Shown: positions 3,728-64,000 of the stretch, one piece after another | Numbering within the stretch: the stretch's first letter is position 1 | Layout of the letters: the number at the start of each line of letters is the position of its first letter | Origin: Actinomycetes bacterium | GTDB lineage: Bacteria > Actinomycetota > Actinomycetes > Propionibacteriales > Propionibacteriaceae | Assembly: GCA_023436925.1 (NCBI GenBank) | Contig: JAEZHJ010000009.1 | Location: forward strand, 1,781 to 65,780 | Length of the DNA: 64,000 bases | Direction: 5' to 3' | The notes under the pieces: generated by a model | The model's database searches: none | Told to the model about the DNA's origin: nothing | The model's input: the letters and a program-made list of their open reading frames with translations, nothing else | Translations under genes and position numbers: made by a program

Positions 3728-3847
3728 GGCGCACAGGATGGCAGCCGCCCGGGTCACCCGACTGCCCTGATCCACGCGACACGCGGGTGGGGACGCAGCC
3801 GAACCGGCGCGGTCCGGCCGCGTTGCCGGCGAGACCCGTCGGCCCGA

Positions 3848-3853
3848 TAGCAT
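3848..3853 (+). promoter_or_regulatory. -10 hexamer TAGCAT, 6 nt upstream of GTG 3860 (leaderless geometry)
   Basis: TAGCAT 3848-3853, spacer ccggtc, GTG 3860-3862. Confidence 0.4.
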
Positions 3854-3859
3854 CCGGTC

Positions 3860-5951
<2,092 letters not shown>

Positions 5952-10707: not shown

Positions 10708-10751
10708 TCCCGGTGCCCGGCCCTGGCCGGTCGCGCGGGGCCGGGCCTCGG

Positions 10752-10757
10752 TAGGAT
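10752..10757 (+). promoter_or_regulatory. -10 hexamer TAGGAT, 6 nt upstream of GTG 10764 (leaderless purD)
   Basis: TAGGAT 10752-10757, spacer cgcgcc, GTG 10764. Confidence 0.45.
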
Positions 10758-10763
10758 CGCGCC

Positions 10764-13459: not shown

Positions 13460-13510
13460 CCGTTCGTCCGCCGTCGGCGGGCACGGGGAAACACCGGCCG
13501 GGCCGCGCAC

Positions 13511-13516
13511 TACGCT
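13511..13516 (+). promoter_or_regulatory. -10 hexamer TACGCT, 6 nt upstream of GTG 13523 (leaderless purC)
   Basis: TACGCT 13511-13516, spacer gaccgc, GTG 13523. Confidence 0.4.
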
Positions 13517-13522
13517 GACCGC

Positions 13523-14377: not shown

Positions 14378-14518
14378 CCGACGCTGCCGGGGCAGTCTCG
14401 ACCGGGCGTCTCGACTGTTCACCTTTTTCTCAGGAAGAAGCTGGCAATCAGGGCCGACTTGTGTATTCTCCTGAGCGAAAGCTGAGATTCGGCTTAGAGA
14501 ACCCCGGAGGCATCCCCC

Positions 14519-22201: not shown

Positions 22202-22314
22202 GGCCCGGCGCGCGGGCGCACGGGGGACGAGTCAGGGACGGATCCGGGGTGCCGGCCCTCCCCGTGGGGGCCGCCGCTCGGCACAATGGTGGGGTCGCAC
22301 GAGCGGAGGACCCG

Positions 22315-27459: not shown

Positions 27460-27578
27460 ACGGCATTCATAGGCGTTGCTGCCACCTTGGCCGCCGTGGG
27501 GTGCAGCCTAATCGCGACCTGCCCGGCGCCCGTGTCCCCCGTGCGGTGGACAGGCGGTTCGTCGGCGCGGCAAAGGGG

Positions 27579-27608
27579 TTAACAAAGCTCCGTCGGCGGT
27601 CGTAGTCT
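27579..27608 (+). promoter_or_regulatory. Candidate sigma-70-type promoter of the giant gene (TTAACA - 18 nt - TAGTCT)
   Basis: TTAACA lies at 27579-27584 and TAGTCT at 27603-27608, in the least GC-rich part of the 214-nt divergent intergenic region. It would give a ~60-nt leader ending in GGAG (27666-27669) before ATG 27674. This is pattern matching only. Confidence 0.3.
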
Positions 27609-27673
27609 GTGGCGAGGCCGCGCACCGGGGGGAACGCGGCGCAGAGGGAGAGAACTTACGAGACCGGAGCTTG

Positions 27674-27817
27674 ATGACCGTCCACCGGGGGACCGGGCCT
27701 GACCGGGCGCACCTGCGCCCCGGCCGCCTGCGATCTGCGACCCCGCTCGGGATCCTGCTCAGTCTGTCCCTGATCGCCGGACTTCTCTACGGCTGGAGCC
27801 TGCCCGCCGCTGCGGCT
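27674..27817 (+). other. Sec-type signal peptide of the giant protein
   Basis: MTVHRGTGPDRAHLRPGRLRSATP (basic n-region), LGILLSLSLIAGLLYGW (h-region), SLPAAAA/EP (AxA-like cleavage site). There is no twin-arginine pair. Confidence 0.7.
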
Positions 27818-30800
27818 GAACCCGCGACCGGTCCGCAGCGCCCCGCCGCCGGATCAGGGTCCGCCCCGCAGGAAGCGGGAGAGCAGCGGGTCATCCTGCT
27901 GCGCGCCGCCAGCGAGGCCGGGATCAGCCAGTTCGACAAGGACACTGCCGCCGCCGTCATCGCCGACCTGGTCGCCGAGCAGGAGGCCCTGCGCCAGGAG
28001 CAGGTCCGCAGCCAGCAGGCCTGGGCGCGCCAGGTCGCCCTGGCCCGCCAGGCGAACCGGGTCCGCCGGGCCCAGGCCGAGGCGAACGCCCAGCTGCAGA
28101 AGGCACTGGAGGCGCTCGCCAAGGCGCTGTCCACCAGCCAGTGCAAGTCCGTCGGCGGCACCAACGGCGAGCCCGCGTCGATCTCCTGCCCCCTCGCCGA
28201 GGGCGGGGAAGGGGAGGTGGAGGTGGGCACCCCCGGCGCCACTCCGACCCCGACCCCCACTCCGACCCCTTCGGCCACCCCGACCCCTGATCCCCAGCCC
28301 GGCAGCGACCCGGGCCAGCCCCTGCTCGCTCCGGCCGTGGGCACCGCCGCGAGCGCCCCGCTCAGCCAGGACCGGCTGGACGCGATCCTGGCCGGCGTGC
28401 TCGCCGAGTGGGCCGACCGCGGCGCCGACACCTCCGGGATCACCGCCACCGTCACCGACCTGTCCGGCGAGCGGCTGGGGGAGACCACCGGACGCACGAT
28501 TCTGGTCGACCCGGTGGCCGGCGGCTGGGGCTGGGACCGGATGGACCTGGCCAGCGTGCTGCGGCACGAGGTCGGCCACGCGCTCGGGCTGGGACACAGC
28601 GAGTCCGGCCTGATGGCCCCCGTCCTTCACCCGGGCCACACGCTCACCGTCCCTGACCGGCTGCCGGTGGCATCTGCGCCGATCTCGGGTACCTGGGCGC
28701 TCACCGGCGACGACGACGCCGGCAGCGACGAGCAGACGCCGCAGGCCGGCGAGCCGGCGCCCGCCGCGCCGTCCGCGTCACCGACGCCGGCACCGGCGGC
28801 TGAGCAGCCCGCGCCGGCCGAGCAGCCGTCCCCGACCCCGAAGCCGACCCCGGCCACCGAGTCCTCCCCGGCCGAGTCCGCTCCGGCTCCCGAGCCGTCC
28901 CGCACCCCTCAGCCGACGCCCGGCAGTTCCTCCGACGAGGAGAGCGATCCGGACGAGCCGGCCGCACCCGCCCGCTGGGAGCCCGCCGGCCACACCGCCC
29001 GCCTCGTGATCGCCACCGGCGACCAGGTCGGCACGCTCTCCTACGACGCGAGCACCGACGAGTTGGTCTATCGGACCGACGCTGTCGAGGTCCGCACCTC
29101 GGCCGAGGGCATCAGCCGGGTGCTCGTCGCCGGGACCGGCGCCACGATCACCATCGACCTGCGCGGCTTCCCGCGCGACCGCGACAAGGTCGAGGTCGAC
29201 GTCGAGGGCCGCCACCAGCGGGTCCACGTGGTCAGCCACGACGAGGTCGAGGTCAGCGGTCCCGACACCGAGCCGGACCAGACCACCGCCCACGCCCTGC
29301 TGATCCGCAGCCTGCTCGCGATCCTGCGGATCGTGGCCCCCCAGTTCGAGGCACGGATCGAGGTGGTCGGCTCCCGGATCGTCGTGACCGGCACCATCGA
29401 CCTGACCGAGACCGGGGCCGACCTCGACCTGACGGCCGGCCAGGTGATCGTCCAGGACGCCACCGTCACCACCGAGGGCAACGTCAACCTGACCGCCATC
29501 GCCACCGACCAGCGCAGCGCCGATGCGCTCGTCGCGCTGCGGGACGCGGCCGTCTTCGCCGACGAGGTGCAGCTCACCGCCACGGCGAACAGCCCGCAGG
29601 CCGCCACCGCGGTCGTCAGCGTCACCGGCTCCGACGTGACCGCCACCGGCTCGGTCACCCTGCTCGCCGATGCCACCGTGTCCGGCTCCGGCAGCCACGC
29701 CAGCAGCACGGCACAGGCGAGCATCACCGACTCCACGATCACCACCCCGGGCGACCTGAACGTCACCGCCCGAAACAACACCCTGCTGATCGTGGACGTC
29801 GCTGGCGACCGGGCCGCCGGGATCACGCAGACCACCACCGCCCGGCTCGCCGGACGGGTGCAGCTCGCCGCCGCGCGGGTGGCGCTGCTGGCCGACTCCA
29901 CCGGCCGGGTCCGGGTCGTCGCCGGCGGCTCCGCCAGCGCCACCGTCGCCACCACCACCCAGGCCGGCCTGGCCGCCGATGCCCGGGTCGCGCTCACCGG
30001 CGGTCGGCTGACTGCCACCGCGGTCTCCCGCCACAGCACCGAGGTGAGCGGCGGCCAGCTCGCGATCGCCATCACCGACGCCCGGACCGCCGCCCTGCTG
30101 GCCGCCCGGTCCGCCCTCACCGGCGCAGGCAGCCTGCGGTTGACCGCCGACAGCAGCGACACCACCCACGCGACCTCCGCCGGTGGCGCCGCGCTGGTGT
30201 CCTCGGTGGCGATCACGACCGCCGGTCTGGCCGGCGGAGACGCGCTGGCGCTGGCCGGAGACCTGACCGTGACCGCGACCGGCGACGCCGAAGCGATCGG
30301 CCGCGGCGCCGGCACTGCCCTGGTTCTCTTCGACCACCGCGTACTCGCCGAACTCGCCCGCTCCGTCACCGCCGGCGGCGCGCTCACCGCCACCGCCGGC
30401 GGACGCTCCGTCGTCTCGACCGAGGCCGCGGCCGGCCGCTGGATCCAGGTCCCCGCCGACGCGTTGGTCGCGGCCGGCGGACTGACCGGCCTTCCGGTCG
30501 CCGTCCCCGTCCCGCTCACCGCCCAGGCCACCGCCAGTGGCACCTCGCAGGCCCGCGTCGTGATCCCGTCCGGGCTCGACCTGTCCGCCGGCGCCGGTGC
30601 CGAACTGCGCGCCACCCTGGCCGGCGGATCCCAGGCCTCCGCCGGCAGCGGACCGGCGGACGCTGCACCCGCCGTCGCGATCAACGACGCCCGGTTCGCC
30701 GCCGTCCTGGCCGCCGACTCGGCCATCGCCACCAGCGGGCCGCTGGTCACCTACTCCGGACGGGGTCCACCGGTCGACGGATTCACCACCACCGCACCGA

Positions 30801-60800: not shown

Positions 60801-63800
60801 TCGAGTCGCTGCGGGTGCTGCTGGGCAGCGGCGACGACCGGCTCGTCGTCGCCGGCACCCACCACGGGACCACCGAGGTCGACGCCGGCGCCGGTGCCGA
60901 TGTGATCACCGTGCGGACCATCGACGGCCACACCCGGATCCTGGCCGGCGCCGGGAACGACACCGTCGAGGTCGGGAGCACCGACCGCCTGCTCGACCTG
61001 CTGGCGGCCACCCTGGTGGTGGACGGCGGCAGCGGCACGGACCGGCTGCTGATCGACGACTCCGGCGACACCGGAAGCAACCTCGGCTGGCTGACCGGCA
61101 CCACCCTGACCGGGCTCGACATGATCGCCCGGACGGCACTGGACACCCTCGGCCGTCCGCTCGACCTGCTGTACTCGGTCCTGCCGCTGGCCGGCGTCGC
61201 GCAGTACACGATCACCCTGGCCCGGCTCGGGCTGGCCACCGCCCTCGGCTCGGTGACCGTCGACGTCGCGACGACCACAGCCGCCCAGCTCGCCGCCGCG
61301 CTGCAGGACCTGCTCTTCCCGCCGGCGCCGGGCGACGACTTCGGCCGCGCCACCAGCTGTGGCGTTGCGGGCGAGAGCCCGTGCGCCCCCTCGGTGTACG
61401 TCTGGGAGTTCGGCACCGGGTTCCTGATCGGCTTCCGCGGCGAGGTCAACGACCCGGCTGCGGTCCGCACCATCACGCTGACCGCCACCGGCGCCGGCTT
61501 CCCGATCGACGGCTACCGCCGCACCGACGGCATCGCCTACACCGGCTTCGAGACCCTCGAACTCGGGCTCGGGTCGGGCAGCGACACGCTGAACATCCGC
61601 GGCACCGGCCCGGTCACCGGCATCGACCTCGGCGCCGGTGACGACCGGGTGTTCGTCTCCTCGACGGCCGACGTCCGGCTCGGCCAGGCCGCCGACTTCC
61701 TGACCGGCACCCTGGACCAACTGCGCGGCACACTCAACCTGCAACTGGGCAGCGGTGGCAACACGCTGCTGATCAGCGACTACGACGCGCTCACCGGGGA
61801 CACCGACGTGCTGGTGACCGACCGGCTCGCCGCCGCCCGCGTCCGGGACGCCGCGCTCGCCGCCGAGGCCGAGATCGCCATCGTCGGGCTCGCCCCGGCC
61901 GGCATCAGCTACGCCGCGACGGGCGGCGACTTCGCCGGCGGCATCCGGCTGTGGACCGGGTACGGCGACGACCGACTCGTCGTGGACGGCACCGTCCGGC
62001 GCGCGGGCCAGCGCACCACCACGTGGCTCAACACCGGCCTCGGCAACGACCACGTCACGATCACGCTCCTCGCCGGGCAGGACGGCCACCTGGTGCTCAA
62101 CACCCAGGGCCCCGACCGCACCCGGCCGACCGCAGCCGATGACGACACCGTCGAGGCCGGCGCCTCCACGCTGCCGCTGGTCATCTTCGGCGGCCAGGGC
62201 GACGACACCATCACCACCGGCAGCGGCGACGACATCGTGGTCGCCGACAACGGCCTGGTGCTGTGGTTCGCGCCGAACCTGCTGCCCGACTTCACCGGCC
62301 TGGCCGACGGCGAGCTGACCCCCGCCGAGCTCGCCGCCCTGATCGGCACCGGGATCGCCGGGGTGGCGGGCTTCGGCGGGCCGGGCGACTTCTCGCTCAA
62401 CACCGAGACCCTGGTGGGGCTGGTCCTGGCGATCCGCTCCGGCACGCCGGGCGACGACGCGGTCAGCACCGGAGCCGGCGACGACATCGTCATCGGCGGC
62501 GAGGGCGCCGACCGGATCGACGCCGGTGGCGGCGACGACGTGGTGATCGGCGACCTGGGCTACCTCGCGCAGACGCTGAGCGGAGGCACCCTGCGGCAGC
62601 GCCGGACCGCGGTCTGGGGCAACACGCTGGGCGGCGATGACGAACTCCGCGGCGGCGACGGCGACGACCTGCTGATCGGCGGTGTCGGGGACGACCGGAT
62701 CGACGGCGGTGCCGGTGCCGACCTGATCCTGGGCGACAACGCCCGCATCGAGCAGAGCTTCAGCCTCACCCCGACCGGATGGTGGCCGTCCTTCCTGCGG
62801 CTCACCCTGCTCGACCACGACAACCTGGCCCAGTCCGCCAAGGTCCGGGCCTGGGGTCACGACACGATCGCGGGCGGTGCCGGGAACGACGTCATCTTCG
62901 GCCAGCTGGGCGACGACGTGATCCAGGGCGACGGATCGATCGACATCCCGGCCCACGCCTACCGCGACGCCGCCGGCCACCTGGTCGTCACCACGTCGGT
63001 GCTGGCCGACACCGACGGCGATGACTACATCGAGGGCGGCGGCGGAAACGACGTGGTCTTCGGCAACGGCGGCAGCGATGACATCATCGGTGGGTCCTCG
63101 GCGCTGTTCTCGCTGACCACGATGAAGTCCCGCCCGGACGGCCGCGACCTGCTCTTCGGTGGCGCCGGGACCCTGACCGGCCGCAACGACGACACCTTCG
63201 ATGACGGACGCGACTCCGACGTCCTGATCGGCGACAACGGGTACATCCTGCGCGCCACCCCGGTGGCCGGCGTGCTGGCCCAGCTGAGCGGCGTCGGCGC
63301 CTCGGTGGCGGCCCTGCTCGGCGGCCGGACGATGCGGGTCGTCGTCCTGCTGGACTACACCGACGGCGGCCCGGACGCCCGCAGCTGGCTGTTCCCGCGG
63401 ATCACCGCCACCCAGGCCGCCACCTCGGGCACCGCGCTGCTTGACGTCTGGGGGGCCGACGAGTTGCACGGCGAGTCCGGCGATGACGCCCTCTACGGCG
63501 GCGGCGGCAACGACGTCCTCTACGGCGGCTCGGGTGTCGACTACCTGGTCGGCGGCTGGGGCCACGACTGGCTCTCCGGCGGCACCGGCAACGACCTGCT
63601 GTTCGGGGACGAGGCGTGGACCAGCGGCATGAGCGTGGACGCCACGCAGCCCAAGACGGTGCGCTACTCCAACGACATCCTCTACGGCGGCTGGGACGAC
63701 GACGTGCTGGACGGCGGCTTCGGCGATGACGCACTGTCCGGTGCCGAGGCGCTGGAGACCTCCTACGCCCTCTCGTACCGCAAGTCGGGCAAGAAGTGGA

Positions 63801-64000
63801 TCGTCACCCAGGTCGAGTCGGGCTGGAACCGGCCGTTCAACGACGGCACCCTGCTCGGCTTCAACACCACGAAGAAGAACCAGTTCGCGCTCTACGCCAA
63901 GAAGACCAAGTTCCGCAAGATCCTGCTCTGCGGCACCAAGGCCTTCACCAGCTGCGCCCAGCCGCGGGAGTGGTTCCTGAACAACGATCCCGCCGACGGC
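27674..64000 (+). CDS. Giant secreted repetitive protein, 5' 12,109 codons (no stop in the window). It combines a signal peptide, a metzincin motif, a beta-helix-like region, 750-aa megarepeats, Ig-like modules and RTX-type Ca-binding repeats
   Basis: The frame with codon starts = 2 mod 3 has stops at 27470-27472 (TAG) and 27509-27511 (TAA). The only starts after that are TTG 27671 and ATG 27674, and there is no stop to base 64000. I translated it by eye and re-checked phase at 28565, 32750, 34970, 37226, 39482, 42362, 43502, 44342, 48779, 49382, 50282, 51422, 52022, 54422, 56042, 56882, 57356, 58082, 63062, 63602 and 63962. No track ORF in 27674-64000 is in this frame, as expected if the track requires an in-window stop. 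Third codon positions are almost all G/C. All long antisense ORFs are in the codon-aligned antisense frame and end at sense TCA/CTA codons (28778, 44381, 52850, 58169). Confidence 0.85.
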   Translation, partial: MTVHRGTGPDRAHLRPGRLRSATPLGILLSLSLIAGLLYGWSLPAAAAEPATGPQRPAAGSGSAPQEAGEQRVILLRAASEAGISQFDKDTAAAVIADLVAEQEALRQEQVRSQQAWARQVALARQANRVRRAQAEANAQLQKALEALAKALSTSQCKSVGGTNGEPASISCPLAEGGEGEVEVGTPGATPTPTPTPTPSATPTPDPQPGSDPGQPLLAPAVGTAASAPLSQDRLDAILAGVLAEWADRGADTSGITATVTDLSGERLGETTGRTILVDPVAGGWGWDRMDLASVLRHEVGHALGLGHSESGLMAPVLHPGHTLTVPDRLPVASAPISGTWALTGDDDAGSDEQTPQAGEPAPAAPSASPTPAPAAEQPAPAEQPSPTPKPTPATESSPAESAPAPEPSRTPQPTPGSSSDEESDPDEPAAPARWEPAGHTARLVIATGDQVGTLSYDASTDELVYRTDAVEVRTSAEGISRVLVAGTGATITIDLRGFPRDRDKVEVDVEGRHQRVHVVSHDEVEVSGPDTEPDQTTAHALLIRSLLAILRIVAPQFEARIEVVGSRIVVTGTIDLTETGADLDLTAGQVIVQDATVTTEGNVNLTAIATDQRSADALVALRDAAVFADEVQLTATANSPQAATAVVSVTGSDVTATGSVTLLADATVSGSGSHASSTAQASITDSTITTPGDLNVTARNNTLLIVDVAGDRAAGITQTTTARLAGRVQLAAARVALLADSTGRVRVVAGGSASATVATTTQAGLAADARVALTGGRLTATAVSRHSTEVSGGQLAIAITDARTAALLAARSALTGAGSLRLTADSSDTTHATSAGGAALVSSVAITTAGLAGGDALALAGDLTVTATGDAEAIGRGAGTALVLFDHRVLAELARSVTAGGALTATAGGRSVVSTEAAAGRWIQVPADALVAAGGLTGLPVAVPVPLTAQATASGTSQARVVIPSGLDLSAGAGAELRATLAGGSQASAGSGPADAAPAVAINDARFAAVLAADSAIATSGPLVTYSGRGPPVDGFTTTAPIFVDLTRFSTSAPPARPAGAVLVIAALGGTLTAPNATLSFAPGALRADAWVSITPRPATVSGLRLNSPVFDLLAFDAATGEAITTFAIAPRLTIAVPTSAAGSVIYYIDDEGVVHQQATSYDAAAGVLVADLPHFSNYAAGSPLDLLVGWIVDRLNGLTAPTSLDLLPGVTLADLTLTGDLAPGAGPHTGSASLTADLSLDLAGVTGSATVTATYQLVNQALDAGTLTVTVTGLVLSVGGVALAATSAAIGHSGTGLAITASGVSAEVAGSIALSDGSASLQLTAAGLAGSVAGTVALTLPGVSLRTGSLGLSIDTVAGRTAFTGSGITLDVLGQTITGNLSLTRGADRLELEVTAAGFSFADGSVRLTAGTAQLVVPDAGELSGSVTGELAIGVRGLTASGSFSAALAGGPSPTITITGADVRLGFDGLQLQAAGATFTRTSDGTTLAVTGASLALGTGDPFLALDGIILDAGLGLAGIVANATGTATVNLPGLVTGDLQVSLAIDTVTGRTGVILTIADTEADRLSLGGLGTLAGTLSLTSSQGETVVALSGVTLRITAGAQDGVVVTDAEGLLLVRAEGVAGYLSGTLSAGLAGAGISGAVAVRLNTIVGAAVDATVTRAGKPVTVRFPAAAAGVLEVSLSGASLTLGDFVTVEGSLSFTDGRFSGTGLSVFLGRGPAFLADGTRNPLAVGVLLTDATVGLVRVGTDGAYRYALVAAGTLTLVGIPGVTLTGTTSVRFNDTGADATIQLPDDVVDLVVPDGTVSFAISQAGLGFAGYQLTGDLAVTPAAEGFTLTVADARLDLAGGVVVRGIAGSLEVGAAGVAFDVTATLEIAALGLAGASVAVAVDSRAGAEVPLRLAVGAVTLSIAGQQLLVDTLTVGRDAVGTTTVAITGGRLQLGGLIEVTLSDGQLALTAGGIAGTLSADISAAAGGLDLGAHVVVQVNTHPADWGGLPGGPYVRVVARDATITAAGQVLSATVVLVRAGASAVDVSVSDARLSLGSADAGIDLTGGSGRLAYTADGIAGSLGGTVTVRIPGLSLTGTLRLSLDTAAGAIGFAGTGITATVLGHSLSGSVTIASSPTGLTVDVEQATLSLAGIVSLVDGRAALVLPTGGTLSGEVTGTVRLTAPGLTLAGTVSAELDAAATAPDPTLRIGGTDLTLGVAGVELTVGELWFSRDAAGAVRLSVAGAALALGPAGQPYLAATGGTATLAVTAAGVSGSLTAQASITVPGLFQTPSPVDVSVSIDTATGQVAVVVTNLVLSFAGLGQISGDLAFSQTTVGGITETVIAMRDVTATVAEGAASITDGTGVLVLRPGGVAGYLSGHAVIQAGPAAGEGSVLLQVNTILGSAIDTSVSLGGQPVAVKYPAAAETVFTLAITGGSLAIGDFVVIEGSVSFDGDRFGGTGLKVFLGNGPATLADGTPNPLAVGVLLSDATVGLLRVGSSYALVATGTVAILGVPGVSLTGTTSVRYNQTGADQNTTIALAGDLPDVVLDVADGTASFTVSAATLRFGGLALTGGLAFSRTGTTTVISVTDGAITLAGAATLSEVTGTLDLTAAGSTATLSAKLGIAALGLAGVTVGVAVDTRPDATIPLTLSLADLDLTIAGQRLSVGQFTLTSRRAGSDTTTAITLAGAGLSLGGGLVTAVIAEGSLELTAGGVAGTVVATVAPTLAGLSLTGGVQLQVNTNPTAALGLPAGPYLRIAVDDATLTVAGQSLRAGVLIVNTADALELTVTSAAASLAGGAITLRDGSGRLRFDADGIVGTVGGTTTVAIPGVAVTGALRLDLDTAAGTFAFTGTGLSLGIFGQTLAGDVTVTSTPTAVELSVERASFDFGGGLIRLVDGSAALRLPTGGALSGSIQGTVSLAVPGVSLAGSFVVEVDGAAVAPLPTLRIGVPADLGNSTPELSLTVAGVDLAVESLWFHRDAAGTIRLTITGAALALGPAAAPYLAISDGGADLVVTAAGVTGGFGATALLNLPGLIENGSVTVAVALDTARGSLSVLVTGVSVSIAGIAELSGDFAFARSATAGVVETVVALSRVTVAITGGDDLGAAISEATGLLVLRETGVAGYLSGRVSGEAGGITLSGTAAVSVNTITNTAIDTAVSLGGRTVQVRFDASPTAVFELSLAGASLRIGDFVSIEGSVTFNGDEFVGTGLSVFLGQGPARLDDGSLNPLAVGVLLTDATIALVRVGAGPDYTYALLATGTVSIIGVPGVTLTGTTSVRFNNTGADVTRTLAAAPGSGTDPVELAIADGTAVFAVTDAILGFAGYALTGSFGFSRTGSDTVLSVSGGGLALAGAVTVSALNGSIAMGAAGLTAVIGGRLSVPALGLSGAGVEVRVDTRSDAAVPLAITATDLTLAIAGQSLTAGRLSITRQAGAGGALATRVELTEARLAIGAGPQPLLSATVATGSLIITPAGLVGSLVASVSTSIPNLQLAGAVQLQVNTTSAAADGLPAGPYLRFSATGAVVAIAGQELRGDLVLVRSTGAGGPVIDLTVSRASLLLGGGMIRLSNGTGNLVLGSGSLSGVLSGTVSVDLPGVEITGTLRLGLDTAAGTIAFTGTGLGLVIAGQTLTGDLTIASSAGTLSVDVANASLDFGGGLVTLGQGSAHLVVVAGAGLSGTVSGQIGIAVPGVGLTSQVSVVLDPTADPVLRIGVEDTSLTLAGVDLHVESLWFSRAADGTIRLTVTGAALELGPAGTEYVKVTGGAATLTVTGAGVSGSLAATATINVPGFAAATAAVRVVVDTASGYLAVEVTGFSLDFGVGELSGDFAFTSSTTAQSSETVIALANVTAVVGSGGDAVSITDGSGLLVLRPGGVAGFLSGHADLDAGPVAASGTVLLQINTVLNTAIDTTVALGGRTLAVKFAASAQTVFEVTISEASLTIGDFVTIEGSVSFDGDRFAGTGLMVFLGRGPAKLGNGSLNPLAMGVLLSDARVGLIRVTGPAGTSYALVASGTVSIIGVPGVTITGTTAVRVNTTGGAVDTTVSIPGSTDPGIQLAFTGPEASFIVSDATLGFAGYALTGTFGFSMAGGDVKVTLTGAALDLGPALAVSDLDGFLVLSQAGLVADLAARLAIPALPLSVDAAVRVDTRAGATEPLRIEVTDLTLTLAGQQLQVGSLVVQQSVLAGATTTYLALAGVGLDLGAGAVRLVDGSGFLVLGAGVAGRLGGSIAVTIPGLVLQGSLGVTINTTAAPVTTSLLVGGRPTTLSLPGGPYLRVDGTGLVLDLLGQRLRADLSIEQATTLPAAGGAGEVVLKVALANVSLSLGGASPVATLTGGSALLVSRASGLAGRISGNLALTVPGVTLTGSLAVLVNTGTIAVTESFRVGDGEVLTLSVPAGGTSAAPATYLAIVGTGITLQVAGQSLQADLELELTGATTTLRLRNAALRLGGTPAAPLLTVSQVSGTTGTFTLDPTGLTGSLAVQLAFAVSGVSVSGSVAIGIDTRPGNERLAVFGDDLRFTVFGQTIAADFSFEQVTTATGARLVRVGIAQGRLFLGGSNPDGSDALVAVRDLTGLFLLTAAGVGGSISGRASLAVPGVEFAAAVSVSLNTTGQVIAQTLLVGGAELAVTVAAGPYLRVEASGVRLQVAGQSLRGNLLIEQVTTVATETTAARTVLRVGLTAVELRIGSGATTIAQVSDGTALLVLDGGGIAGRVTGAFALVGVPGITVAATVAVELNTTGVAVEDRFTIDGTTTDLRLGTAYFVATASQATISLGEGLELAADIVLTLPAAAGEFSVRIERGSISLAGGLVRAVDVNGELAIAAGRTTAALAAGIRVTVPGLAVTGDVQVSLDADAAVTEFSIEVTTAEISLGDGLLSVGAERVQISSFGAGATAEVRFAAEGITLQLADLVDVRPGHHWSAAIVVTAAGIAARFAGALSDDEGSFLSLPDGITVAGTVALLVNTAPTAMVRADLGLSVPAGPYLALSFSAGTIAVAGLSLNGNFQLTVAGDRTVIAFSDMDVSFGSSGDNAGLSVTGGRGVFVLLPATPGATPVDGGVAGSFSGKVSAAGGGFAADATLSARFNTSGQQLDESVTVNGATLRLVFDEDELAGADGAFFEFVVAASIRISDFVEIAGTFSFGSGTTPATITDVTVFVGDGPGFTSVDGATDRNPFARGLYITGASGQASADAFALRGTIELVGISGLTLAGTVQVLYNKGTTATTLMLGTESVAVAAGTATAPFLLVVGSAITVDIAGQRLTGAIGIEKTATRFRIAAGTAINEIDGTAATEDYDALRLTFGEGIASLAASGLIDLAATGVVAVLDGELVLDAGDAFALTSPASLQLNSTSAVATVGGVTLAPRSVVVQVGTADAPATLSLFGQSLSGVLLFSQVVGVAGGVATAPPVTSQLVITNLTLSIGSSTAGVRITDGTAFLSLGASVAGRIAGRVSLVGTPVTISGAVEVLVNTGSQKVTASVEVDGSSVGLEVPGGPYLKVVGTDITLAIAGQRISGDLAITQAANAVGSTLTVSLSRVSAGFGDGSTDLVRLVNGTGDLTLGDSGLIGSIAGTVQLALPGVEVSTGLRLEIGVNSLVLAASDLTVTVGGFALRGSVRISQLTVGLARTTRLEFTGTADLGDPIGAVSLGGDLTLTAAGIRGQLTLAADLTIGDVSITADPLRLEIDTATGLVAITGEGMSLSIAGVALAGSFAIRRVAAGGGATRTVVAVSGGSLTLTGTTPILRNINGLLVIVPPTTPGATTGAQAGGIAGQLSGTVDLSSLLPAEVGVSGGFALTVNRTGRRVTESVTIAGATTTLDLAAGPYLKVAGTAVTLNLMGQRLTGSVSFEQAGSTTRIVLQDVSLRLGDGVTDLVAISTVGINEFTLGATTGPTPTRYLFGRLAVQVALNVPGLSLGGERLWLDINTDTAAAHSLADGTPLAANLLRVGGTGIHLDVAGQRLSGTFWVEQTGPATARVTRVSVSDLFLFLGDPGADGLAGDSATAAAFADNRGVALADGSGALLLSAAGVAGVVAGTIVVGPGLDSSVLDIDPIEVKLELNTRPTAVEDGALGLSLPAGRFLRLQLGGTAPVGLRIAGQEFSGRFSFEQVTSAGPDGRLGTTDDVASVKIAATAVQLFLGDNGGTAGDQSDDIGLRVSDGTALLLLTPEGIAGRIAARATLSLGAGVAAVGADVEVTLNQLRRTVGATVRPVAVNESFVIGGTTTSLVLPAGVYVRAAITGLALELGGQRFTTDLRFEQAQLLNADGSLDPAGSTTTTISLDNLGLRLGTADRDIVVVSGGQGSLVIVGASGGVAGGIVGAVSARVAIDIPGATFHGAFQVLLNTRPAGTGAYLLTMGTPSTADDLAVSPGLAVSGTGIALEIAGQRLTGSFGFSRSAAGDIVVLVEDARLALGDGSRSFVTVEVSGALLVTSPRPGAAAGLAGELTAALTLSPELGTQLGIDLAADLPVVLQLNTTAAAVNRSFTVGALARTINVGANTLAVQVGLTGRPASLNLFGQTVSAVVRFEQATTPGGAKVVKVGFTDLSLFLGDDKGTPATGDDVGLRLTGGYGAILITPSGYAGEFLGTIALAGLPVTVDVSRLSLQVNTLAVAVSETVTFVDRNGAVTTRTMVLPKGQFLRIAGTGIVLGFTGTPLTLTGDVAFERVGSGADQVTRIGVANATLNPNGQAIDGTSPSGNLIALSGALFLFGAGAVTNPGGPGTADDVRTTTGGVAGVLTGRVQTGGGGANLGASLGFALNTTGAAVKQSVAVGAQTISVDLTAGQRFAFVARDVEFDLGDFIELRAGQIVLSGDSFSGTGLELFIGRGPSRLADGSDNPDAIGVLIRNASLTLVRDPGGTGYALRARGQFAFLGLDGLEVSATVDFLVNTASTTLDPGDLAAVAPLPASTDPIVANYFSFKAVNVSIAVAGVFVISGNLSLTRQPNGDLDLAFNPIGLLIKIEGTNIALLQGYASFTIAAATGLRLTSFKVGSFKLLPRDTDLPRSVSELTGAGNVAMFPTADLAGPYKGQVLRSGDPNYATNQLKVVFNDPNGVGLNVATITDAEAELQVLVNGQAVALAGGGGNPVRQGTSNVWIYTLAAPLPAGLVTVRFLPGSFADNAGATTMGEDEFFILWTPPAGAPTQTQPGPTAALASPANGGVITVAQINAQGYLDVTYTSLDGSPILKSSLDTTVPFRVSGTGVADLLVHTTAGNEGRPVIRATPLLVTGRADSATSVTYRYFLQDRNKQNAVGLFQTGTVQLVFDGEFYSSGNGTAPAGAPGNLRSPGQTQSFRIDPSAPGEQTSNGSVGLGPLSLQGPSIGLADFGFADGMVVLTIALGVDRASLDFSPSASQPGQASGSSPSVELLGVMGTFDLAVDVFGLLSGKFRVEPTGAWSLNVASLEALIPNVAELRATGIAIKYDPTAPRGQELVRINTAELTLPKFGITGSLRPYNPTTRANLDVDNDAALATGVVPGLIVRDNGFTLGTAELKYKPGTPSVGGAAPIGGGTGKINIFGILELDDIRVGVSGLAVNFDAANPVAGFTGEIYIATGGATLFPGKSFTARLTDRTTADDRRPDGSIDDEAFRIGLGFSGGAVTAFVLDVDTMEIVLGGYVTLTARDFALDTSAAGTDAELVSFATVGATVTIGDLRLSGEGRHFAVTGNGGFVTKSGFGVFLAVGSATGASFKWPSWLPIRIDAIGIEWDDIQQNPGDFVLTLSASVTGIQGLAGLNFSGSVQGIRIQPSLLLEGKFPVIGIDAFGVTASGSLFGGEINAGLIGGILRLDSDFSIIGTFDRTTPVAQRVLYLGLQGGFSIAGMAGFTIRLGLSELGPLQVFINVETPTGILLVPQIGLTLNDFAAGVEFFKTLPSLEDPFALRSSVADLPTAQTADSWLVSLQQQVAAQARAVAANPAIGGFLAAFTAPMVITGGARIYSLYTSEQLFNGQVTVKISTDGKMLIIGKLNFAANSVSLSGRLYVDLSKVAQGDATVLFLADIPDQVRLLTLYGKLKMGFRDSSGREVEFDVLDVPDPDATGTAPTTEVGGPVAGGGSADLSVVNGPDGERYIDVVFTAPSGATLNLAEILGEGQEFTAGYVRADGSIRPLTINGRPVPLIAVTTSSGLLFVPVQYDTTSSDRKKWRAFYQYSATPGGSLTTVEIVSGAQVDQTALLATATGLGYFTQQALRVAGVTRFRYTVTGGLTDNKWDIGTVRVSFAEGAIRNSDVMVNGVTTPGARSAARTVEFQITGVTAVVTNPGAGIDINLVNNRGWKTFLDVTFTAPEGRLLVLASLLDLAPEFTISGSGLGTAVLDATRAPTVLGEATATAASYTLRFWVTGAFAETGTVSVAPIAGSWSFASDATAELPSGTPAPSWQVGAGTTGILIRLAGLRTDSGAWQLASGLLLDPASFTIADLVDADPSTPGVQLYAVGDVRVTVDAGVAFTYLGDGVFSVGVVVTGLRSTEDDANPTVTIAPTVKPGAVSGASADDSAYAADRLEVKPFPVTGAAANPTSYLDIRFTPSIGRLLLDNSIDGDEFVITGPGAGSVQLTGTPFLLEGTTYRYLLTGRFSVGAVNLVFTLANFRDDSGRSPPAEATSTSTFSVIGATADAIWSDKALNGQIIGVDVLNGRRYLEITFRPAAGSTLDHSTINGDELVFTAPDGTVIILGSPVRVGTSDTYRYSFSATLAVGRYTLGFVSGSFADQAGTRNAAEVESFTLAAPTVVVTNPNNGAAGDAKDFGRRGYIDITFPTINGIAVDPDSILDAGAEFTVEAAGAVLKIVGAPTLLGNGTYRYWFTYTLTNETDPVTGAPGTIGAFSNWRFLPGSWTSLSGEQWTAEHGAPTDHTPATGVVWFDVRYTGIGGLDIEQLLAGGQLTLTGAGSEALTAGDIVQLDDNTFRYLYTGALTPGTLTLSIAAGSWSDQAGNAGTGTTSTFHLITRGSSFYIELLGGIILATAGLTEDPLLDLRARVILEIDPARKLFALSFDGQMSIIHLGTVGSTSGKFVLDLGDESTSVPQFWGVATIETNFSALEPYGIKMFAKGTLQINLTGEEKVETITLLGLGDGGGDVTRTFVLRPYSFGLELVGQLIVEAGGNELMRLQGGIWLSIEGTPTPSLQMYLTGELSFGSGSARLTYGAATGVLFIRTGGDHGYGVAGMFSISQGASLGLPTSPDFLITGKVQVMFNTTLHEQVLTIPASFLPLLRPGEPTTITVHASAPGLDGQPVTGAAGAVYVKATISATLIIKNLITLTGYIGLTVAVEPGPTTVGSIKIDGAVGGSIPFLGAVTGTVQLHAFISNDAGKSGFVGRIALTVGASSIPGVKFGGQFLLEINTFATEQTVETFKLETVDGVTRLAVNGDGSIATDDVTLASGVNLVMYGKLLVLDRIEISGSVAFTLGGDGLTLKVKGLMALHPIGSISVVALLSVDARGLVAYFKVARNADFGAGIGLSFGAGVSMTVSLNTTSNAVYFSQLGDAVPDPEAEPTLPEECDGPAAGCTAVARGFRLNVTGSIDLLGFASASGFVDITIGPNGFQLLFGLEFSLAGALTFKANGGATVTGDGFAMILDVSLRAGDGAIFEIEASGKLKLNTASVSLLGVAAKSFTLDVRGKVSILKIIDFDAALLISVEDGGWYLRANASMKFFGFANMSGRIELWSNGDFNIQLSGRLVIGSSSFGLVGQFNFGLTSRHYGDGFYKFELTMGASVDVRIFGITLLGAGISATFKVDTGSATESRVKIQLTVRVRIKILFISFTKSATFTIGYLQIPQPVWLGGSEDAPRHFEGGTLYLNTGDRAAHRNIGVEDEDESYTVEQIGTTAAGATIKLTAFGRTSTYTGVTAIVGNLGGGHDQLFVSPSVTVPLTIDAGAGDDLIVVEGTGSMNLAAGDGDDDVVITGGRTGTVTGGAGNDYLRHEGTGNVALDGGAGNDTLIAAAATGSIDAGAGDDYVEAQLGSGNLTIIGGEGADELRLRLTGGNDGLQVSGSGTDLRFAAADPVTGALLGASRTAAGFESVTVDAGAGSDAITVQDFTGATTTSLTLVLGGGGADRVTLAGTSGADGYTLDHAEHPDEDYGLELRVRKTGAFTLWLVGAVRAEGDTLAIDAGAGDDTLDASAMTVDSVALTLIGGDGDDTLVGSPFADILDSGAGNDKVTGGRGQDIFRDASGFDTLIETVWSAVGLYNNLLVMGSLASSGIDFAAGATIEDLAGIFEAARLTGSDGADTFLIGDADGFVAIGTTRRTAQGWSGTVEILPAGGDDTIRVELRGAGNAAITIRDSAGTDTLQVYGTSQREDVVVEARLILASAAVDGTTATIAFGQGDERGIDAVLIDTRDGSDRVAVRAIDVPHSIELGGGDDLLAIGSLAGSGATATQWPNPAGTLNGIAALLTISGGLTEVAEGVFQTGYDLVWISDASDTAGNTGVLTANLLTGLGLAQGISYQGFEALELRLGSGADELTIRSTHSGSTALDAGAGNDLIIIGTGSAALTGIAGAVSITAGAGTDELQLDATGSTADLIGRLTADAITGLGMPGSLSYRPEGAAAPETLRISLGSGNDQFAVASTSTASFVTGGPGADRVVVNPEPVEGTPNALAGRLGIDGQAGADVTVVHLWANGNSRVDVSDSDLAHTLVVYGTSAADTIVLRTNADGSRGLVALLSGRGNDGLFAAAEMVTYSSGIVGAADGYPAVDQGPTADPGDDSAGNTAPGVRLYTLGGDDLVAFDDTATAFLLDLGAGADLVRVGQIYKVRRAIDGQDPADPYRSDDEFGVRSGPTSGSFDSSRGLLSAGVRHDTTISGGDGNDIFELVHNIGRIWLYGDDGDDTFVVRSFVSAASVPYINLGGGNNVVQYAANAQVAIDGGEGNDTVVVVGTEGPDVFVVTATAIYGAGRVITFVAIEQIVLYGQEGDDEFRILSTPAGVGLSVFGGLGNDRIRIGGASDPVSVTFPATATTPQTTTTVTFTPTTLADIRGPVYVSGGFDPDPPYSIELDSYLPVLLPGETSGPPFPVETTTGQAVEVAQVDELVLDNSLNTTGQTGTVTAQDITGLLTGVVYTGFESLRVLLGSGDDRLVVAGTHHGTTEVDAGAGADVITVRTIDGHTRILAGAGNDTVEVGSTDRLLDLLAATLVVDGGSGTDRLLIDDSGDTGSNLGWLTGTTLTGLDMIARTALDTLGRPLDLLYSVLPLAGVAQYTITLARLGLATALGSVTVDVATTTAAQLAAALQDLLFPPAPGDDFGRATSCGVAGESPCAPSVYVWEFGTGFLIGFRGEVNDPAAVRTITLTATGAGFPIDGYRRTDGIAYTGFETLELGLGSGSDTLNIRGTGPVTGIDLGAGDDRVFVSSTADVRLGQAADFLTGTLDQLRGTLNLQLGSGGNTLLISDYDALTGDTDVLVTDRLAAARVRDAALAAEAEIAIVGLAPAGISYAATGGDFAGGIRLWTGYGDDRLVVDGTVRRAGQRTTTWLNTGLGNDHVTITLLAGQDGHLVLNTQGPDRTRPTAADDDTVEAGASTLPLVIFGGQGDDTITTGSGDDIVVADNGLVLWFAPNLLPDFTGLADGELTPAELAALIGTGIAGVAGFGGPGDFSLNTETLVGLVLAIRSGTPGDDAVSTGAGDDIVIGGEGADRIDAGGGDDVVIGDLGYLAQTLSGGTLRQRRTAVWGNTLGGDDELRGGDGDDLLIGGVGDDRIDGGAGADLILGDNARIEQSFSLTPTGWWPSFLRLTLLDHDNLAQSAKVRAWGHDTIAGGAGNDVIFGQLGDDVIQGDGSIDIPAHAYRDAAGHLVVTTSVLADTDGDDYIEGGGGNDVVFGNGGSDDIIGGSSALFSLTTMKSRPDGRDLLFGGAGTLTGRNDDTFDDGRDSDVLIGDNGYILRATPVAGVLAQLSGVGASVAALLGGRTMRVVVLLDYTDGGPDARSWLFPRITATQAATSGTALLDVWGADELHGESGDDALYGGGGNDVLYGGSGVDYLVGGWGHDWLSGGTGNDLLFGDEAWTSGMSVDATQPKTVRYSNDILYGGWDDDVLDGGFGDDALSGAEALETSYALSYRKSGKKWIVTQVESGWNRPFNDGTLLGFNTTKKNQFALYAKKTKFRKILLCGTKAFTSCAQPREWFLNNDPADG
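28226..28320 (+). repeat. Pro/Thr linker (TPTPTPTPTPSATPTPDPQP)
   Basis: Direct translation. It follows a Gln/Ala/Arg-rich predicted coiled coil at about 27974-28131 (EQEALRQEQVRSQQAWARQVALARQANRVRRAQAEANAQLQKALEALAKAL). Confidence 0.8.
28565..28621 (+). other. Metzincin/matrixin-type zinc-binding motif HEVGHALGLGH followed by SESGLMAP (Met-turn-like)
   Basis: Codons are cac gag gtc ggc cac gcg ctc ggg ctg gga cac (28565-28597), then agc gag tcc ggc ctg atg gcc ccc. This matches HExxHxxGxxH plus a downstream Met as in peptidase M10 (HExGHxLGLxHS....LMxP). Only about 90 aa of non-low-complexity sequence lie between the PT linker and the motif. Confidence 0.65.
28706..28975 (+). repeat. Pro/Ala/Glu/Ser-rich low-complexity linker
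   Basis: Translation reads DDDAGSDEQTPQAGEPAPAAPSASPTPAPAAEQPAPAEQPSPTPKPTPATESSPAESAPAPEPSRTPQPTPGSSSDEESDPDEPAAPA. Confidence 0.8.
29380..30740 (+). other. T/A/G/S/V-rich region with short irregular repeats, beta-helix/solenoid-like (approximate boundaries)
   Basis: Recurrent patterns are V(T/S)(L/A)TA..., e.g. GNVNLTAIATD, VQLTATANS, GSVTLLADATVSG, GDLNVTARNN, GSLRLTADSSD, GDLTVTATGDA. They resemble the passenger-type parallel beta-helices of adhesins. This is inference from composition only. Confidence 0.35.
32546..34765 (+). repeat. Megarepeat unit A (740 aa)
   Basis: Runs from VAGYLSG at 32546 to the next VAGYLSG at 34766. Confidence 0.8.
34766..37021 (+). repeat. Megarepeat unit B (752 aa)
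   Basis: Runs from VAGYLSG at 34766 to VAGYLSG at 37022. Its conserved core is about 75-80% identical at nucleotide level to units A/C/D by eye, less elsewhere. Confidence 0.8.
37022..39277 (+). repeat. Megarepeat unit C (752 aa)
   Basis: Runs from VAGYLSG at 37022 to VAGFLSG at 39278. Confidence 0.8.
40500..48300 (+). repeat. Degenerate modules (about 125-330 aa) sharing the core ...NT...(A/G)GPYL(R/K)...(A/G)GQxLxG...FEQ... (approximate boundaries)
   Basis: GPYL(R/K)-type and AGQxL motifs were read at about 40466, 40870, 41552, 42600, 43380, 44132, 45116, 45480, 45890, 46340, 46770, 47150 and 47560. The same core occurs once per megarepeat (about 33670, 35905, 38195). A diverged copy of the GDFV module lies at 43040-43320 and another at 48040-48300. 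Confidence 0.65.
48779..49440 (+). other. Two ~100-aa Ig-like/beta-sandwich modules
   Basis: LKVVFNDPNGVGLNVATITDAEAELQVLVNGQAV...VTVRFLPGSFADNAGA and GYLDVTYTSLDGSPI...SVTYRYFLQD...VQLVFDGEF. They share the signature of the array at 51780-54470. Confidence 0.5.
49560..51600 (+). other. Non-repetitive, compositionally distinct segment 1 (K/F/I/M/W-containing, beta-rich)
   Basis: Unique sequence, e.g. FKWPSWLPIRIDAIGIEWDDIQQNPGDFVLTLSASV, LYLGLQGGFSIAGMAGFTIRLGLSELGPLQVFINVETPTGILLVPQIGLTLNDFAAGVEFFKTLPSLEDPF, IYSLYTSEQLFNGQVTVKISTDGKMLIIGKLNF. I recognise no family. Confidence 0.5.
51780..54470 (+). repeat. Array of about 8 Ig-like modules (~100-115 aa each)
   Basis: The recurring signature is Y(L/I)D(I/V)xF(T)xP ... 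(T/S)(Y/F)RY ... G(S)(F/W)xDxAG(N/T). Examples: RYIDVVFTAP; TFLDVTFTAP..IAGSWSF; SYLDIRFTPS..TTYRYLLTG..LANFRDDSGR; RYLEITFRPA..DTYRYSFSA..VSGSFADQAGT; GYIDITFPT..GTYRYWFTY; VWFDVRYTG..NTFRYLYTG..AAGSWSDQAGN. Confidence 0.6.
54470..57000 (+). other. Non-repetitive, compositionally distinct segment 2 (K/F/I/M/W-containing, beta-rich, one CxxxxxxC pair)
   Basis: Examples: GSSFYIELLGGIILATAG, FALSFDGQMSIIHLGTVGSTSGKFVLDLG, YGIKMFAKGTLQINLTGEEKVETITLLGLG, ECDGPAAGC (56119-56145), WYLRANASMKFFGFANMSGRIELWSNGDFNIQLSG, VKIQLTVRVRIKILFISFTKSATFTIGYLQIP. I recognise no family. Confidence 0.5.
57180..63750 (+). repeat. Region dense in GxGxD / GGxGxDxUx (RTX, hemolysin-type) calcium-binding motifs, interleaved with ~250-370-aa modules
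   Basis: I counted more than 40 G-x-G-x-D motifs by eye, e.g. GGAGNDYL (57356), GGAGNDTLI (57413), GGDGDDTLVG, SGAGNDKVTGG, GGEGNDTVVV. True period-9 arrays include GGDGDDLLI GGVGDDRID GGAGADLIL GDN (about 62650-62740). A recurring module anchor is (I/V)xY.GFE.L.L.LGSG.D.L.I, seen as GISYQGFEALELRLGSGADELTI (~58950), GVVYTGFESLRVLLGSGDDRLVV (~60790) and GIAYTGFETLELGLGSGSDTLNI (~61535). Confidence 0.8.
63470..63610 (+). repeat. Canonical RTX block: five consecutive nonapeptides
   Basis: GESGDDALY GGGGNDVLY GGSGVDYLV GGWGHDWLS GGTGNDLLF GDE, translated directly from 63470 onward. Confidence 0.85.

Follow-up and report, generated by a model that had tools for sequence, protein, structure and literature searches.

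A 37.3-kb actinobacterial gene and its predicted product, a putative extracellular beta-rich fiber protein of a widespread unnamed family

We analyzed a stretch of 64,000 nucleotides (nt), hereafter the window, from contig JAEZHJ010000009.1 (positions 1,781 to 65,780, forward strand) of the Actinomycetes bacterium assembly GCA_023436925.1, and found that more than half of it is occupied by one giant open reading frame (ORF). The region 27674-64000 is the first 97% of a single, real and intact gene under purifying selection. Judged by sequence comparison, the giant protein is a member of a widespread but unnamed family, since it contains the ~750-residue megarepeat, the two conserved modules segA and segB in the same order, and an ORF of more than 7,000 residues. 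The protein is probably exported by the Sec pathway and would form a calcium-stiffened extracellular fiber that acts as an adhesin or matrix scaffold. The host, named by its nearest relatives in sequence, is a Propionicimonas-like high-GC actinobacterium.

The plus-strand frame that starts with ATG 27674 runs to base 64000 with 0 stops in 12,109 codons, and the remaining five frames of the same span contain 271, 44, 8, 122 and 638 stops. With the base composition of the window (72% G+C), the stop probability is 0.0156 per codon, or about one stop per 64 codons, and an open run of 12,109 codons would be expected by chance with P ~10^-82.5. The G+C contents of the three codon positions (GC1/GC2/GC3) were 0.686/0.539/0.955, which is the usual signature of an actinobacterial coding frame. 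The nearest in-frame stop on the 5' side was found at 27509, and the earliest start codons are TTG 27671 and ATG 27674. Promoter/terminator and Rfam scans of 27300-27800 revealed no sigma-70 consensus promoter and no Rfam element; a terminator scan of the 5' region of the gene was likewise negative, and riboswitches were not found near it.

The ORF listing of the window omitted the giant frame because the frame runs off the window end. Listed instead were four large minus-strand ORFs opposite the gene (28778-39301, 44381-49432, 52850-57847 and 58169-63565), which we rejected as genes on the basis of codon-position statistics and of their ends. Each of them ends exactly at a rare phase-0 sense codon (TCA, CTA, TCA and TCA, respectively), and they are therefore codon-aligned antisense shadows; TCA, CTA and TTA together make up 8 of the 12,109 phase-0 codons of the giant frame (six TCA, two CTA, no TTA). 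A preliminary description of this DNA, made from the letters alone, had claimed the stop-free frame, the reason for its omission and the shadow nature of the four ORFs, and was correct on all three; codon-position statistics, which it had proposed as a check, support the plus-strand frame through the GC3 value. A high-GC chance artifact as the origin of the ORF was also rejected, based on the same statistics and on colinearity across species. In practice, an antisense ORF of several kilobases in a high-GC genome is an artifact when it is terminated by nothing but TCA, CTA or TTA codons of the sense strand.

The end of the gene was located by searching with the last 1,000 in-window residues, which identified a protein of 1,109 residues (P0001) encoded on two LEMO22-1 metagenome contigs, L001 and L002. 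These sister contigs are 99.8-99.9% identical to window 51650-64000, and P0001 is identical to the in-window part except for its start residue and one substitution, after which it continues for 325 residues to a stop. As the stop in the sister contigs lies 325 codons beyond the window end, the full protein comprises 12,434 residues, with a mass of 1.244 MDa and an isoelectric point (pI) of 4.42, and the gene spans 37.3 kb. The 325 residues contain more RTX repeats followed by a C-terminal domain of ~235 residues with three Cys pairs. The preliminary description had expected further domains beyond the window, and these were present, but the LPXTG, membrane or SLH anchor that it anticipated among them was not.

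Comparison with related sequences revealed the substitution pattern of a coding gene. In particular, 21 of the 25 substitutions between the window and L001, and 9 of the 11 between the window and L002, fall at codon position 3. A contig from another species, Actinomycetes bacterium OH_CBB_123 (L005), is colinear with residues 5586-7891 (82.7% identity, 2,319 residues compared, three gaps), and its differences from the window are distributed over codon positions 1/2/3 as 299/194/628. Additionally, the upstream piece of the gene on L002, of at least 10,500 residues, was called independently. Repeat collapse or chimerism as the origin of the ORF was rejected as unlikely because the DNA repeats inside the gene are too diverged, none being near-identical (the highest identities being 82% over 130 nt and 66-76% over 300 nt).

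The two sister assemblies depart from the window at one site, 61609/61614. L002 lacks one C at window 61609 (L002 position 9961), and L001 has an extra base at window 61614 (L001 position 9966), inside a cluster of seven mismatches within 45 nt; the two indels are 5 nt apart in a GGCCCGG context. Gene callers divide the ORF here in both sister assemblies, which counts against one uninterrupted gene; an in-frame stop or frameshift, which the preliminary description had named as telling against its reading, is in part what these assemblies show. Such opposite-sign 1-nt indels in two independent assemblies, together with the many database homologs that end in frameshift-derived junk, would fit a locus that is not a single functional gene in the population but is split (~11,310 + 1,109 residues), decaying or phase-variable, with the window representing a minority or consensus-corrected allele. 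We consider this quite unlikely. Homologs from many lineages carry the motif LNVRGTxPVTNVxxGxGDDRVYVSS without gaps across the site and in the frame of the window, so the intact frame is the conserved one. Substitutions are biased to codon position 3 on both sides of 61609/61614, the mismatch cluster around the L001 insertion resembles a local misassembly, and fragmented homologs are typical of error-prone assemblies of such genes. The indels could be an assembly artifact, the result of gene conversion between repeats, or a variable site.

The limits of the modules in the giant protein were derived from self-BLAST, autocorrelation, internal alignments, motif spacing and comparison with homologs, and are collected in Table 1. 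The tripartite layout of the signal peptide is common to the four homologs that have N-termini. The Cys-loop motif AKALSTSQC(x14)SC-P (AKALSTSQC...SISCP; 28127-28198, residues 152-175) is almost invariant in the actinobacterial members P0135, P0140 and P0122, with diverged flanks, and may be an anchoring or oligomerization element. The sequence HEVGHALGLGH...GLM at residues 298-314 contains both the HExxHxxGxxH zinc motif and the Met-turn, and the subsequent N-terminal beta region is 39-45% identical to P0121 and P0122 at syntenic loci. The megarepeats gave an autocorrelation peak at lag 752, and their copies are 45-53% identical (alignment A1). The smaller units that follow share the motifs GPYLRV, GQxLxG and xLxVNT at a spacing of 121-135 residues, with 27-40% identity by self-BLAST. 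The RTX region showed 30 matches to the nonapeptide pattern and also holds non-RTX inserts, including a Lys-rich insert with a Cys pair at residues ~12,036-12,100. All 14 Cys of the 12,434 residues form seven pairs spaced 7-23 residues apart (157/172, 9483/9490, 11229/11237, 12086/12094, 12334/12343, 12357/12368 and 12401/12424), which suggests local disulfide loops and would fit an extracellular protein. The full 12,434 residues contain no LPxT[GAS] or NPxTG motif, all LAxTG matches being internal repeat sequence, and, apart from the signal peptide, no hydrophobic segment, not even at the C-terminus.

Table 1. Positions of the giant gene, its modules and the indel site in the window
Feature	Residues	Position	Strand	Remarks
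Ribosome-binding site GGAG		27665..27668	+	5 nt 5' of ATG 27674; read from the sequence
Giant ORF, in-window part	1-12,109 of 12,434	27674..64000	+	TGA 975 nt beyond the window
Putative Sec-type signal peptide	1-48	27674..27817	+	Arg-rich n-region, hydrophobic PLGILLSLSLIAGLLYGW, then PAAAA/EP
Helical Ala/Gln/Arg-rich (coiled-coil-like) stretch and Cys-loop motif	~95-175	27956..28198	+	
Mini-metzincin-like domain	~228-335	28355..28678	+	HEVGHALGLGH and GLM Met-turn; Pro/Thr-rich linkers on both sides
N-terminal Thr/Ala/Gly-rich beta region with conserved ~160-residue module	440-1269	28991..31480	+	unclassified
Four ~750-residue megarepeats	~1,270-4,260	31481-33703, 33704-35923, 35924-38203, 38204-40453	+	self-BLAST
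About 20 diverged units of 120-135 residues	4261-6990	40454..48643	+	related to megarepeat sub-units
Two ~100-residue beta-sandwich-like modules	~7020-7270	48731..49483	+	alignment A5
segA, single-copy central module	7296-7905	49559..51388	+	invariant WPxWxP motif
Five more ~100-residue modules	~8040-8940	51791..54493	+	motifs YxDxxF...TYRY...GSxxDxxG
segB, second conserved beta-rich module	8930-9790	54461..57043	+	xLxVNT about every 130 residues
Putative calcium-binding RTX/RTX-like beta-roll region	~9790-12,109 in window, to ~12,190	57041..64000	+	
Opposite 1-nt indels in sister assemblies		61609..61614	+	L002 -1 at 61609, L001 +1 at 61614

The whole protein was searched against Pfam in pieces of 4,000 residues and as nine shorter segments, ~9,900 residues were searched against NCBIfam, and the whole in-window protein was compared with PDB sequences by phmmer. 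Only the M10 zinc motif and the RTX repeats were recognized, leaving ~9,500 residues with no Pfam, NCBIfam or PDB match. Peptidase_M10 scored 26.7 bits (cut-off 24) over profile positions 105-137 of 159 only, and the similarity to matrix metalloproteinases in the PDB covered ~35 residues with an E-value of ~0.05; the domain comprises ~100 residues here instead of the ~160 of a complete M10 catalytic domain. HemolysinCabind scored 131.8 bits in 8 stretches of the last 1,009 in-window residues, with further matches at residues ~10,116 and ~12,118, and the PDB matches of the RTX region were the RTX blocks of CyaA, MpAFP, AlgE6 and serralysins. The N-terminal beta region (residues 440-1269) matched nothing in Pfam, NCBIfam or the PDB and was found by hhalign to be unrelated to the megarepeat. 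No Big or Cadherin Pfam family was matched in residues 1,250-7,000. For the ~100-residue modules (A5 profile), there was no PDB match and no Pfam match beyond a weak similarity of one of the seven to Big_12 (E 0.008). A profile of segA built from 25 sequences (A4) likewise matched nothing in the PDB or Pfam. We also found that segA and, more weakly, segB aligned with the megarepeat core in hhalign (probability 75%, E 2.7e-5, and probability 35%, E 4e-4, respectively), which suggests that they are distant relatives of this core. The Pfam families SecA, AsmA, DUF490 and Chorein had no match in the giant protein.

As evident from these results, the interpretation given in the preliminary description was largely right. 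The signal-peptide-like N-terminus, HEVGHALGLGH with GLM, the four ~752-residue megarepeats and the RTX repeats were all present, and its two unique beta-rich segments correspond to segA and segB. The "Ig-like arrays" exist as the seven ~100-residue modules, but the Ig-like label is plausible and unproven, as is shown by the single weak Big_12 similarity; the term "beta-helix-like" for the N-terminal region is likewise unproven. An anchor had been wrongly expected and uniqueness overstated. It had not recognized the domain order as a described family, which holds true of curated databases, but about a thousand uncharacterized relatives exist; the domain order is kept across many genomes (see below), and proteins of more than 10,000 residues have already been catalogued.

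The structure of megarepeat copy 2 was predicted with AlphaFold2 from an alignment of 21 sequences. The model had a mean predicted local distance difference test score (pLDDT) of 82 and a predicted template modeling score (pTM) of 0.54, and contained 48 strands averaging 11 residues per ~740 residues, with 72% strand and no helices of 4 or more residues. The megarepeat is thus confidently predicted to be an up-and-down antiparallel beta-meander. Its strands alternate hydrophobic and small polar residues (2.19, compared with 1.48 +/- 0.15 in shuffled strands). A Foldseek search of the model against PDB and BFVD gave no fold match, the best template modeling (TM) scores being 0.10-0.18 with a root mean square deviation (rmsd) above 20 Å. 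The weak neighbors were the ApoB100 beta-belt, LptD, large outer-membrane barrels, phage tail fibers and Chorein_N proteins (TM 0.14-0.18 to Chorein_N proteins and 0.13 to LptD and ApoB); ApoB, LptD and Chorein_N were rejected as fold assignments, as only long antiparallel sheets are in common with the model. The AlphaFold2 model of segA, built from 6 sequences, had a pLDDT of 54 and was discarded together with its Foldseek result.

The relatives of the giant protein were numerous. An exhaustive HMMER search with the megarepeat profile matched 1,130 clusters (50% identity), including 679 at E <=1e-10 and 245 at E <=1e-30; many of the matches were 2,000-8,000 residues long, and all named ones were "hypothetical protein". 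The planctomycete-like giants P0173, P0176 and P0193 are colinear with the giant protein, with identities of 27-30% in segA and 22-25% in segB, and segA is 27-67% identical in giants of several phyla, with same-order matches that include P0131 and P0123. When one genome of each species was scanned with a single peptide pattern from segA, the module was found at 64 loci in species-representative genomes, corresponding to at least 64 species in at least 8 phyla, the best locus being 88% identical in segA. Within the Actinomycetota, segA was found in Propionicimonas (including Propionicimonas sp. T2.31MG-18), Ilumatobacteraceae, Gaiellaceae and Solirubrobacteraceae; it was also found in Planctomycetota, Verrucomicrobiota, Desulfobacterota, Candidatus Polarisedimenticolia, Rokubacteria, Spirochaetota and Pseudomonadota. 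The isolates with segA include Thioclava pacifica DSM 10166 and Rhodobacter flavimaris WL0062 (Pseudomonadota) and the verrucomicrobial Oleiharenicola lentus. Of the segA loci, 27 cover the entire 21.8 kb, and in 18 of these the frame through segA has no stop over the whole length (>7,200 residues), including in genomes of 52-55% GC, a composition at which chance would not be expected to produce such long frames. When 5.8 billion proteins were searched with a segA profile, 55 fragments were retrieved, each annotated as "hypothetical" and lacking a Pfam domain. On this sequence evidence, the domain order of beta-meander repeats, segA, segB and calcium-binding repeats is conserved in giants of at least 64 species-representative genomes.

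The N-terminal part is less widely shared. The first 1,250 residues had only two relatives, both positioned after purM and a fructosamine kinase gene, and at least 10 family members share the mini-metzincin motif near their N-terminus, with the third zinc ligand varying among H, D and E. Most of the relatives, according to record titles, originate from metagenomes of sludge, reactors, sediment and groundwater. In relatives P0123, P0129, P0135, P0140, P0146, P0155 and P0162, we also observed FG-GAP/VCBS-like GDVDGDGxxDL inserts, none of which occurs in the window protein. The giant gene is chopped into several ORFs in the public assemblies of loci L069, L070 and L071, and the ends of P0123, P0127, P0131, P0133 and P0135 are Arg/Pro/Gly-rich out-of-frame junk. 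Because relatives are so routinely fragmented or frameshifted in assemblies, the true sizes in this family are underestimated in protein databases. In the open-access literature, we found no description of the megarepeat/segA/segB family or of its conservation across phyla, and only general catalogues of giant genes.

The closest known counterparts in layout are the RTX adhesins of Gram-negative bacteria (MpIBP of Marinomonas primoryensis, LapA, SiiE, FrhA and BapA), which are likewise megadalton, acidic proteins with a long repetitive beta extender. In RTX adhesins, the extender is followed by distal ligand-binding modules and then by RTX repeats (PMC5550230, PMC7493085). The giant protein also contains unique modules toward its distal C-terminal part followed by a block of RTX nonapeptide beta-rolls, and the RTX blocks of MpAFP and CyaA were its best PDB sequence matches. 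However, RTX adhesins use a dedicated type I secretion system and have no N-terminal signal peptide, whereas the giant protein has a signal-peptide-like N-terminus, a monoderm actinobacterial host and no adjoining type I secretion genes. Their extender consists of tandem ~100-residue BIg domains with calcium-binding linkers, in contrast to the continuous meander of 750- and 125-residue units seen here. A retention module or LapG site was not recognizable, although no model for the module was applied; the N-terminus instead comprises the signal peptide, coiled coil, Cys loop and mini-metzincin. By analogy, the giant protein may work like an RTX adhesin yet lies outside that family, because of its apparent Sec-type export with no type I system nearby, its non-BIg extender and the lack of a visible retention module.

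We also compared the giant protein with other large or related proteins and found partial similarities. Serralysins and matrixins (MEROPS M10) share HExxHxxGxxH and the downstream Met-turn, and serralysins also combine an M10-type motif and RTX repeats in one polypeptide; in the giant protein, however, the M10-like domain comprises ~100 residues and is separated from the RTX region by ~9,500 residues. Proteins of more than 10,000 residues have been catalogued in Actinobacteriota and in phyla of the Planctomycetota-Verrucomicrobiota-Chlamydiota (PVC) group (10.1101/2023.11.21.568195), and giant genes of comparable size are described elsewhere (PMC11573180, PMC12673574, PMC5352709). These catalogued giants likewise have predicted surface or calcium-binding roles and few detectable domains, and are often fragmented in assemblies; the present family, similarly, has planctomycete and verrucomicrobial members. 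For the giants of Omnitrophota, long antiparallel beta-helix tubules have been predicted (10.1101/2023.11.21.568195), but these proteins have many transmembrane regions and a divergent SecA-DEAD domain (West-Roberts et al. 2023), both of which are missing here. LPXTG giants (Ebh, SasC-type) resemble the giant protein in their N-terminal signal peptide, huge repetitive extracellular part and monoderm host, but differ in repeat type and in having a sortase motif, a C-terminal membrane segment and a charged tail. Bridge-like AsmA/TamB/VPS13 proteins have an N-terminal membrane anchor and a beta-taco fold; for the giant protein, the comparison gave no matching Pfam family and TM scores of 0.14-0.18 to Chorein_N proteins.

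Taken as a model, the Sec pathway would export the giant protein by means of a cleavable N-terminal signal peptide. Outside the cell, ~8,500 residues (megarepeats, ~125-residue units, segA and segB) would fold into a long antiparallel beta-meander sheet with the ~100-residue sandwich-like modules interspersed, the C-terminal RTX-type beta-roll region of ~2,400 residues would fold upon calcium binding, and seven local disulfide pairs would form. The product would be a very long calcium-stiffened fiber serving as an adhesin or matrix scaffold, with the conserved single-copy modules near the distal end as possible binding or functional heads, and the N-terminal mini-metzincin may act in processing or matrix degradation. 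What argues for such a fiber is the combination of a signal peptide, the absence of membrane segments, paired Cys, a low pI, repetitive beta structure, distal single-copy modules and an RTX block. We therefore keep the calcium-stabilized surface fiber or adhesin role put forward in the preliminary description as the best inference.

Several points weigh against this reading. Export, fiber geometry, calcium dependence and adhesion are all inferences, and the signal peptide was judged by eye, that is, heuristically. Sec export of a 1.24-MDa protein is unusual in a monoderm bacterium. The megarepeat fold has no solved counterpart (TM <=0.18), which makes the fiber geometry conjectural. Additionally, no LPXTG, transmembrane or SLH anchor was found that would hold the protein on the cell, and it may be released.

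This last point leads to an alternative in which the protein is an unattached matrix, sheath or S-layer-like scaffold that polymerizes or gels with calcium in flocs or biofilms. The lack of an anchor motif of any kind would fit, as would an acidic, RTX-rich protein (pI 4.42) whose relatives come mostly from sludge, reactor, sediment and groundwater metagenomes. On the other hand, the coiled coil and Cys loop conserved near the N-terminus could serve as an anchor of a non-covalent kind, and a single protein copy of 1.24 MDa is costly material for a bulk matrix; we regard this alternative as unlikely. We hold it similarly improbable that the giant protein is an offensive or degradative device, in which a tethered or secreted effector would present the metalloprotease to neighboring cells or polymeric substrates and relatives would bear other enzymatic heads, an idea already put forward for Omnitrophota giants and for polymorphic or MARTX-type toxins. 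Giant proteins have been linked to predation (10.1101/2023.11.21.568195). In favor of this idea, at least 10 family members have kept the complete HExxHxxGxxH and Met-turn at the N-terminus, L069 and L071 show pieces of Peptidase_M10 and Calx-beta again at the C-terminal end, and a NosD/parallel-beta-helix neighbor is conserved downstream in three lineages. The parallel-beta-helix fold is common among polysaccharide-active enzymes. However, only ~35 residues of the matrixin profile are matched by a domain of ~100 residues, not 160, the third zinc ligand varies among the homologs, and neither a recognizable toxin domain nor a downstream immunity gene was found; to our knowledge, the host lineage is not known as predatory.

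Another alternative takes the amphipathic beta-meander as a groove or hollow antiparallel beta-helix that would carry hydrophobic molecules or cargo between cells, modeled on the bridge-like AsmA/TamB and VPS13 proteins and the ApoB beta-belt. The amphipathic strands and the identity of the very weak Foldseek neighbors (ApoB100 beta-belt, LptD and Chorein_N proteins) point in this direction, and predictions for other giant proteins include hollow tubules of antiparallel beta-helix (10.1101/2023.11.21.568195). TM scores of 0.10-0.18 with an rmsd above 20 Å do not, however, amount to fold matches. The giant protein has neither a match to the Pfam families AsmA, DUF490 or Chorein nor a membrane anchor, and the polar strand face is rich in Thr, Ser and Gly, as in ordinary two-layer beta structures. 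We give a conduit of this kind very little credence. A broader and still tentative proposal is that the beta-meander represents a new architecture, built either as one giant, uninterrupted beta-ribbon or as an antiparallel beta-helix with a hollow interior, forming extracellular nanofibers or conduits about a tenth of a micrometer in scale, and conserved together with segA/segB heads in at least 8 phyla of both monoderm and diderm bacteria. If so, few families of proteins that are still unannotated, unsolved in structure and without an assigned function would be as large and widespread.

Compared with the size of the protein, the family and its fold are of greater interest, as the family is widespread, unnamed and structurally unmatched, spanning sludge Propionibacteriales to Planctomycetota, Verrucomicrobiota, Desulfobacterales and Rhodobacterales. 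If the calcium-stiffened fiber reading is true, megadalton calcium-binding fibers would shape the surfaces of many environmental bacteria. The family is under-counted in gene catalogues through fragmentation, mis-calls, and ORF finders that drop contig-end ORFs in favor of antisense shadows. Its function is testable through the orthologs present in cultured strains, namely Thioclava pacifica DSM 10166, Rhodobacter flavimaris WL0062, Oleiharenicola lentus and Propionicimonas sp. T2.31MG-18.

Upstream of the giant gene lies a purine-biosynthesis neighborhood (purA, D, B, C, Q, L, F and M), and a divergently oriented fructosamine kinase gene adjoins the giant gene. On the 3' side, L001 and L002 encode a NosD/parallel-beta-helix protein of 330 residues (13398-14390), 68 nt past the stop, followed by ABC-F, DUF4191, lipA, FG-GAP proteins and lipB. 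A NosD/beta-helix gene was also found 3' of the fragmented giant gene in two lineages that are more distant, L069 (17070-18377) and L070 (16874-18199), and by sequence it appears to be a conserved partner in three separate lineages. The 330-residue protein has no obvious signal peptide. Calx-beta and Peptidase_M10 pieces are present at the 3' end of the giant gene in L069 and L071. Separate FG-GAP proteins are encoded on the minus strand ~5 kb downstream (L001 18639-20749 and L002 18639-21472). The 27 kb upstream and the 10 kb downstream of the giant gene contain no type I secretion genes (ABC transporter, membrane fusion protein or outer membrane factor); the sole HlyD_3-like ORF (7967-8701) is part of a GT2/GH81 cluster at a distance of 19 kb, and the ABC protein encoded downstream belongs to the ABC-F type.

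This cluster, at 6264-10707 between purA and purD, encodes a GT2/cellulose-synthase-like protein (568 residues), the HlyD_3-like protein (244 residues) and a protein with a GH81 C-terminal domain (669 residues). GH81 enzymes are endo-beta-1,3-glucanases, and judging from these similarities the insert looks like a beta-glucan exopolysaccharide module in the purine operon region. We also observed that an ORF with a C-terminal DUF4870 domain (21910-23637) overlaps the end of purL by ~290 nt; the syntenic gene in L003 encodes 387 residues, and the true start of the DUF4870 gene is probably further downstream than the start of this ORF.

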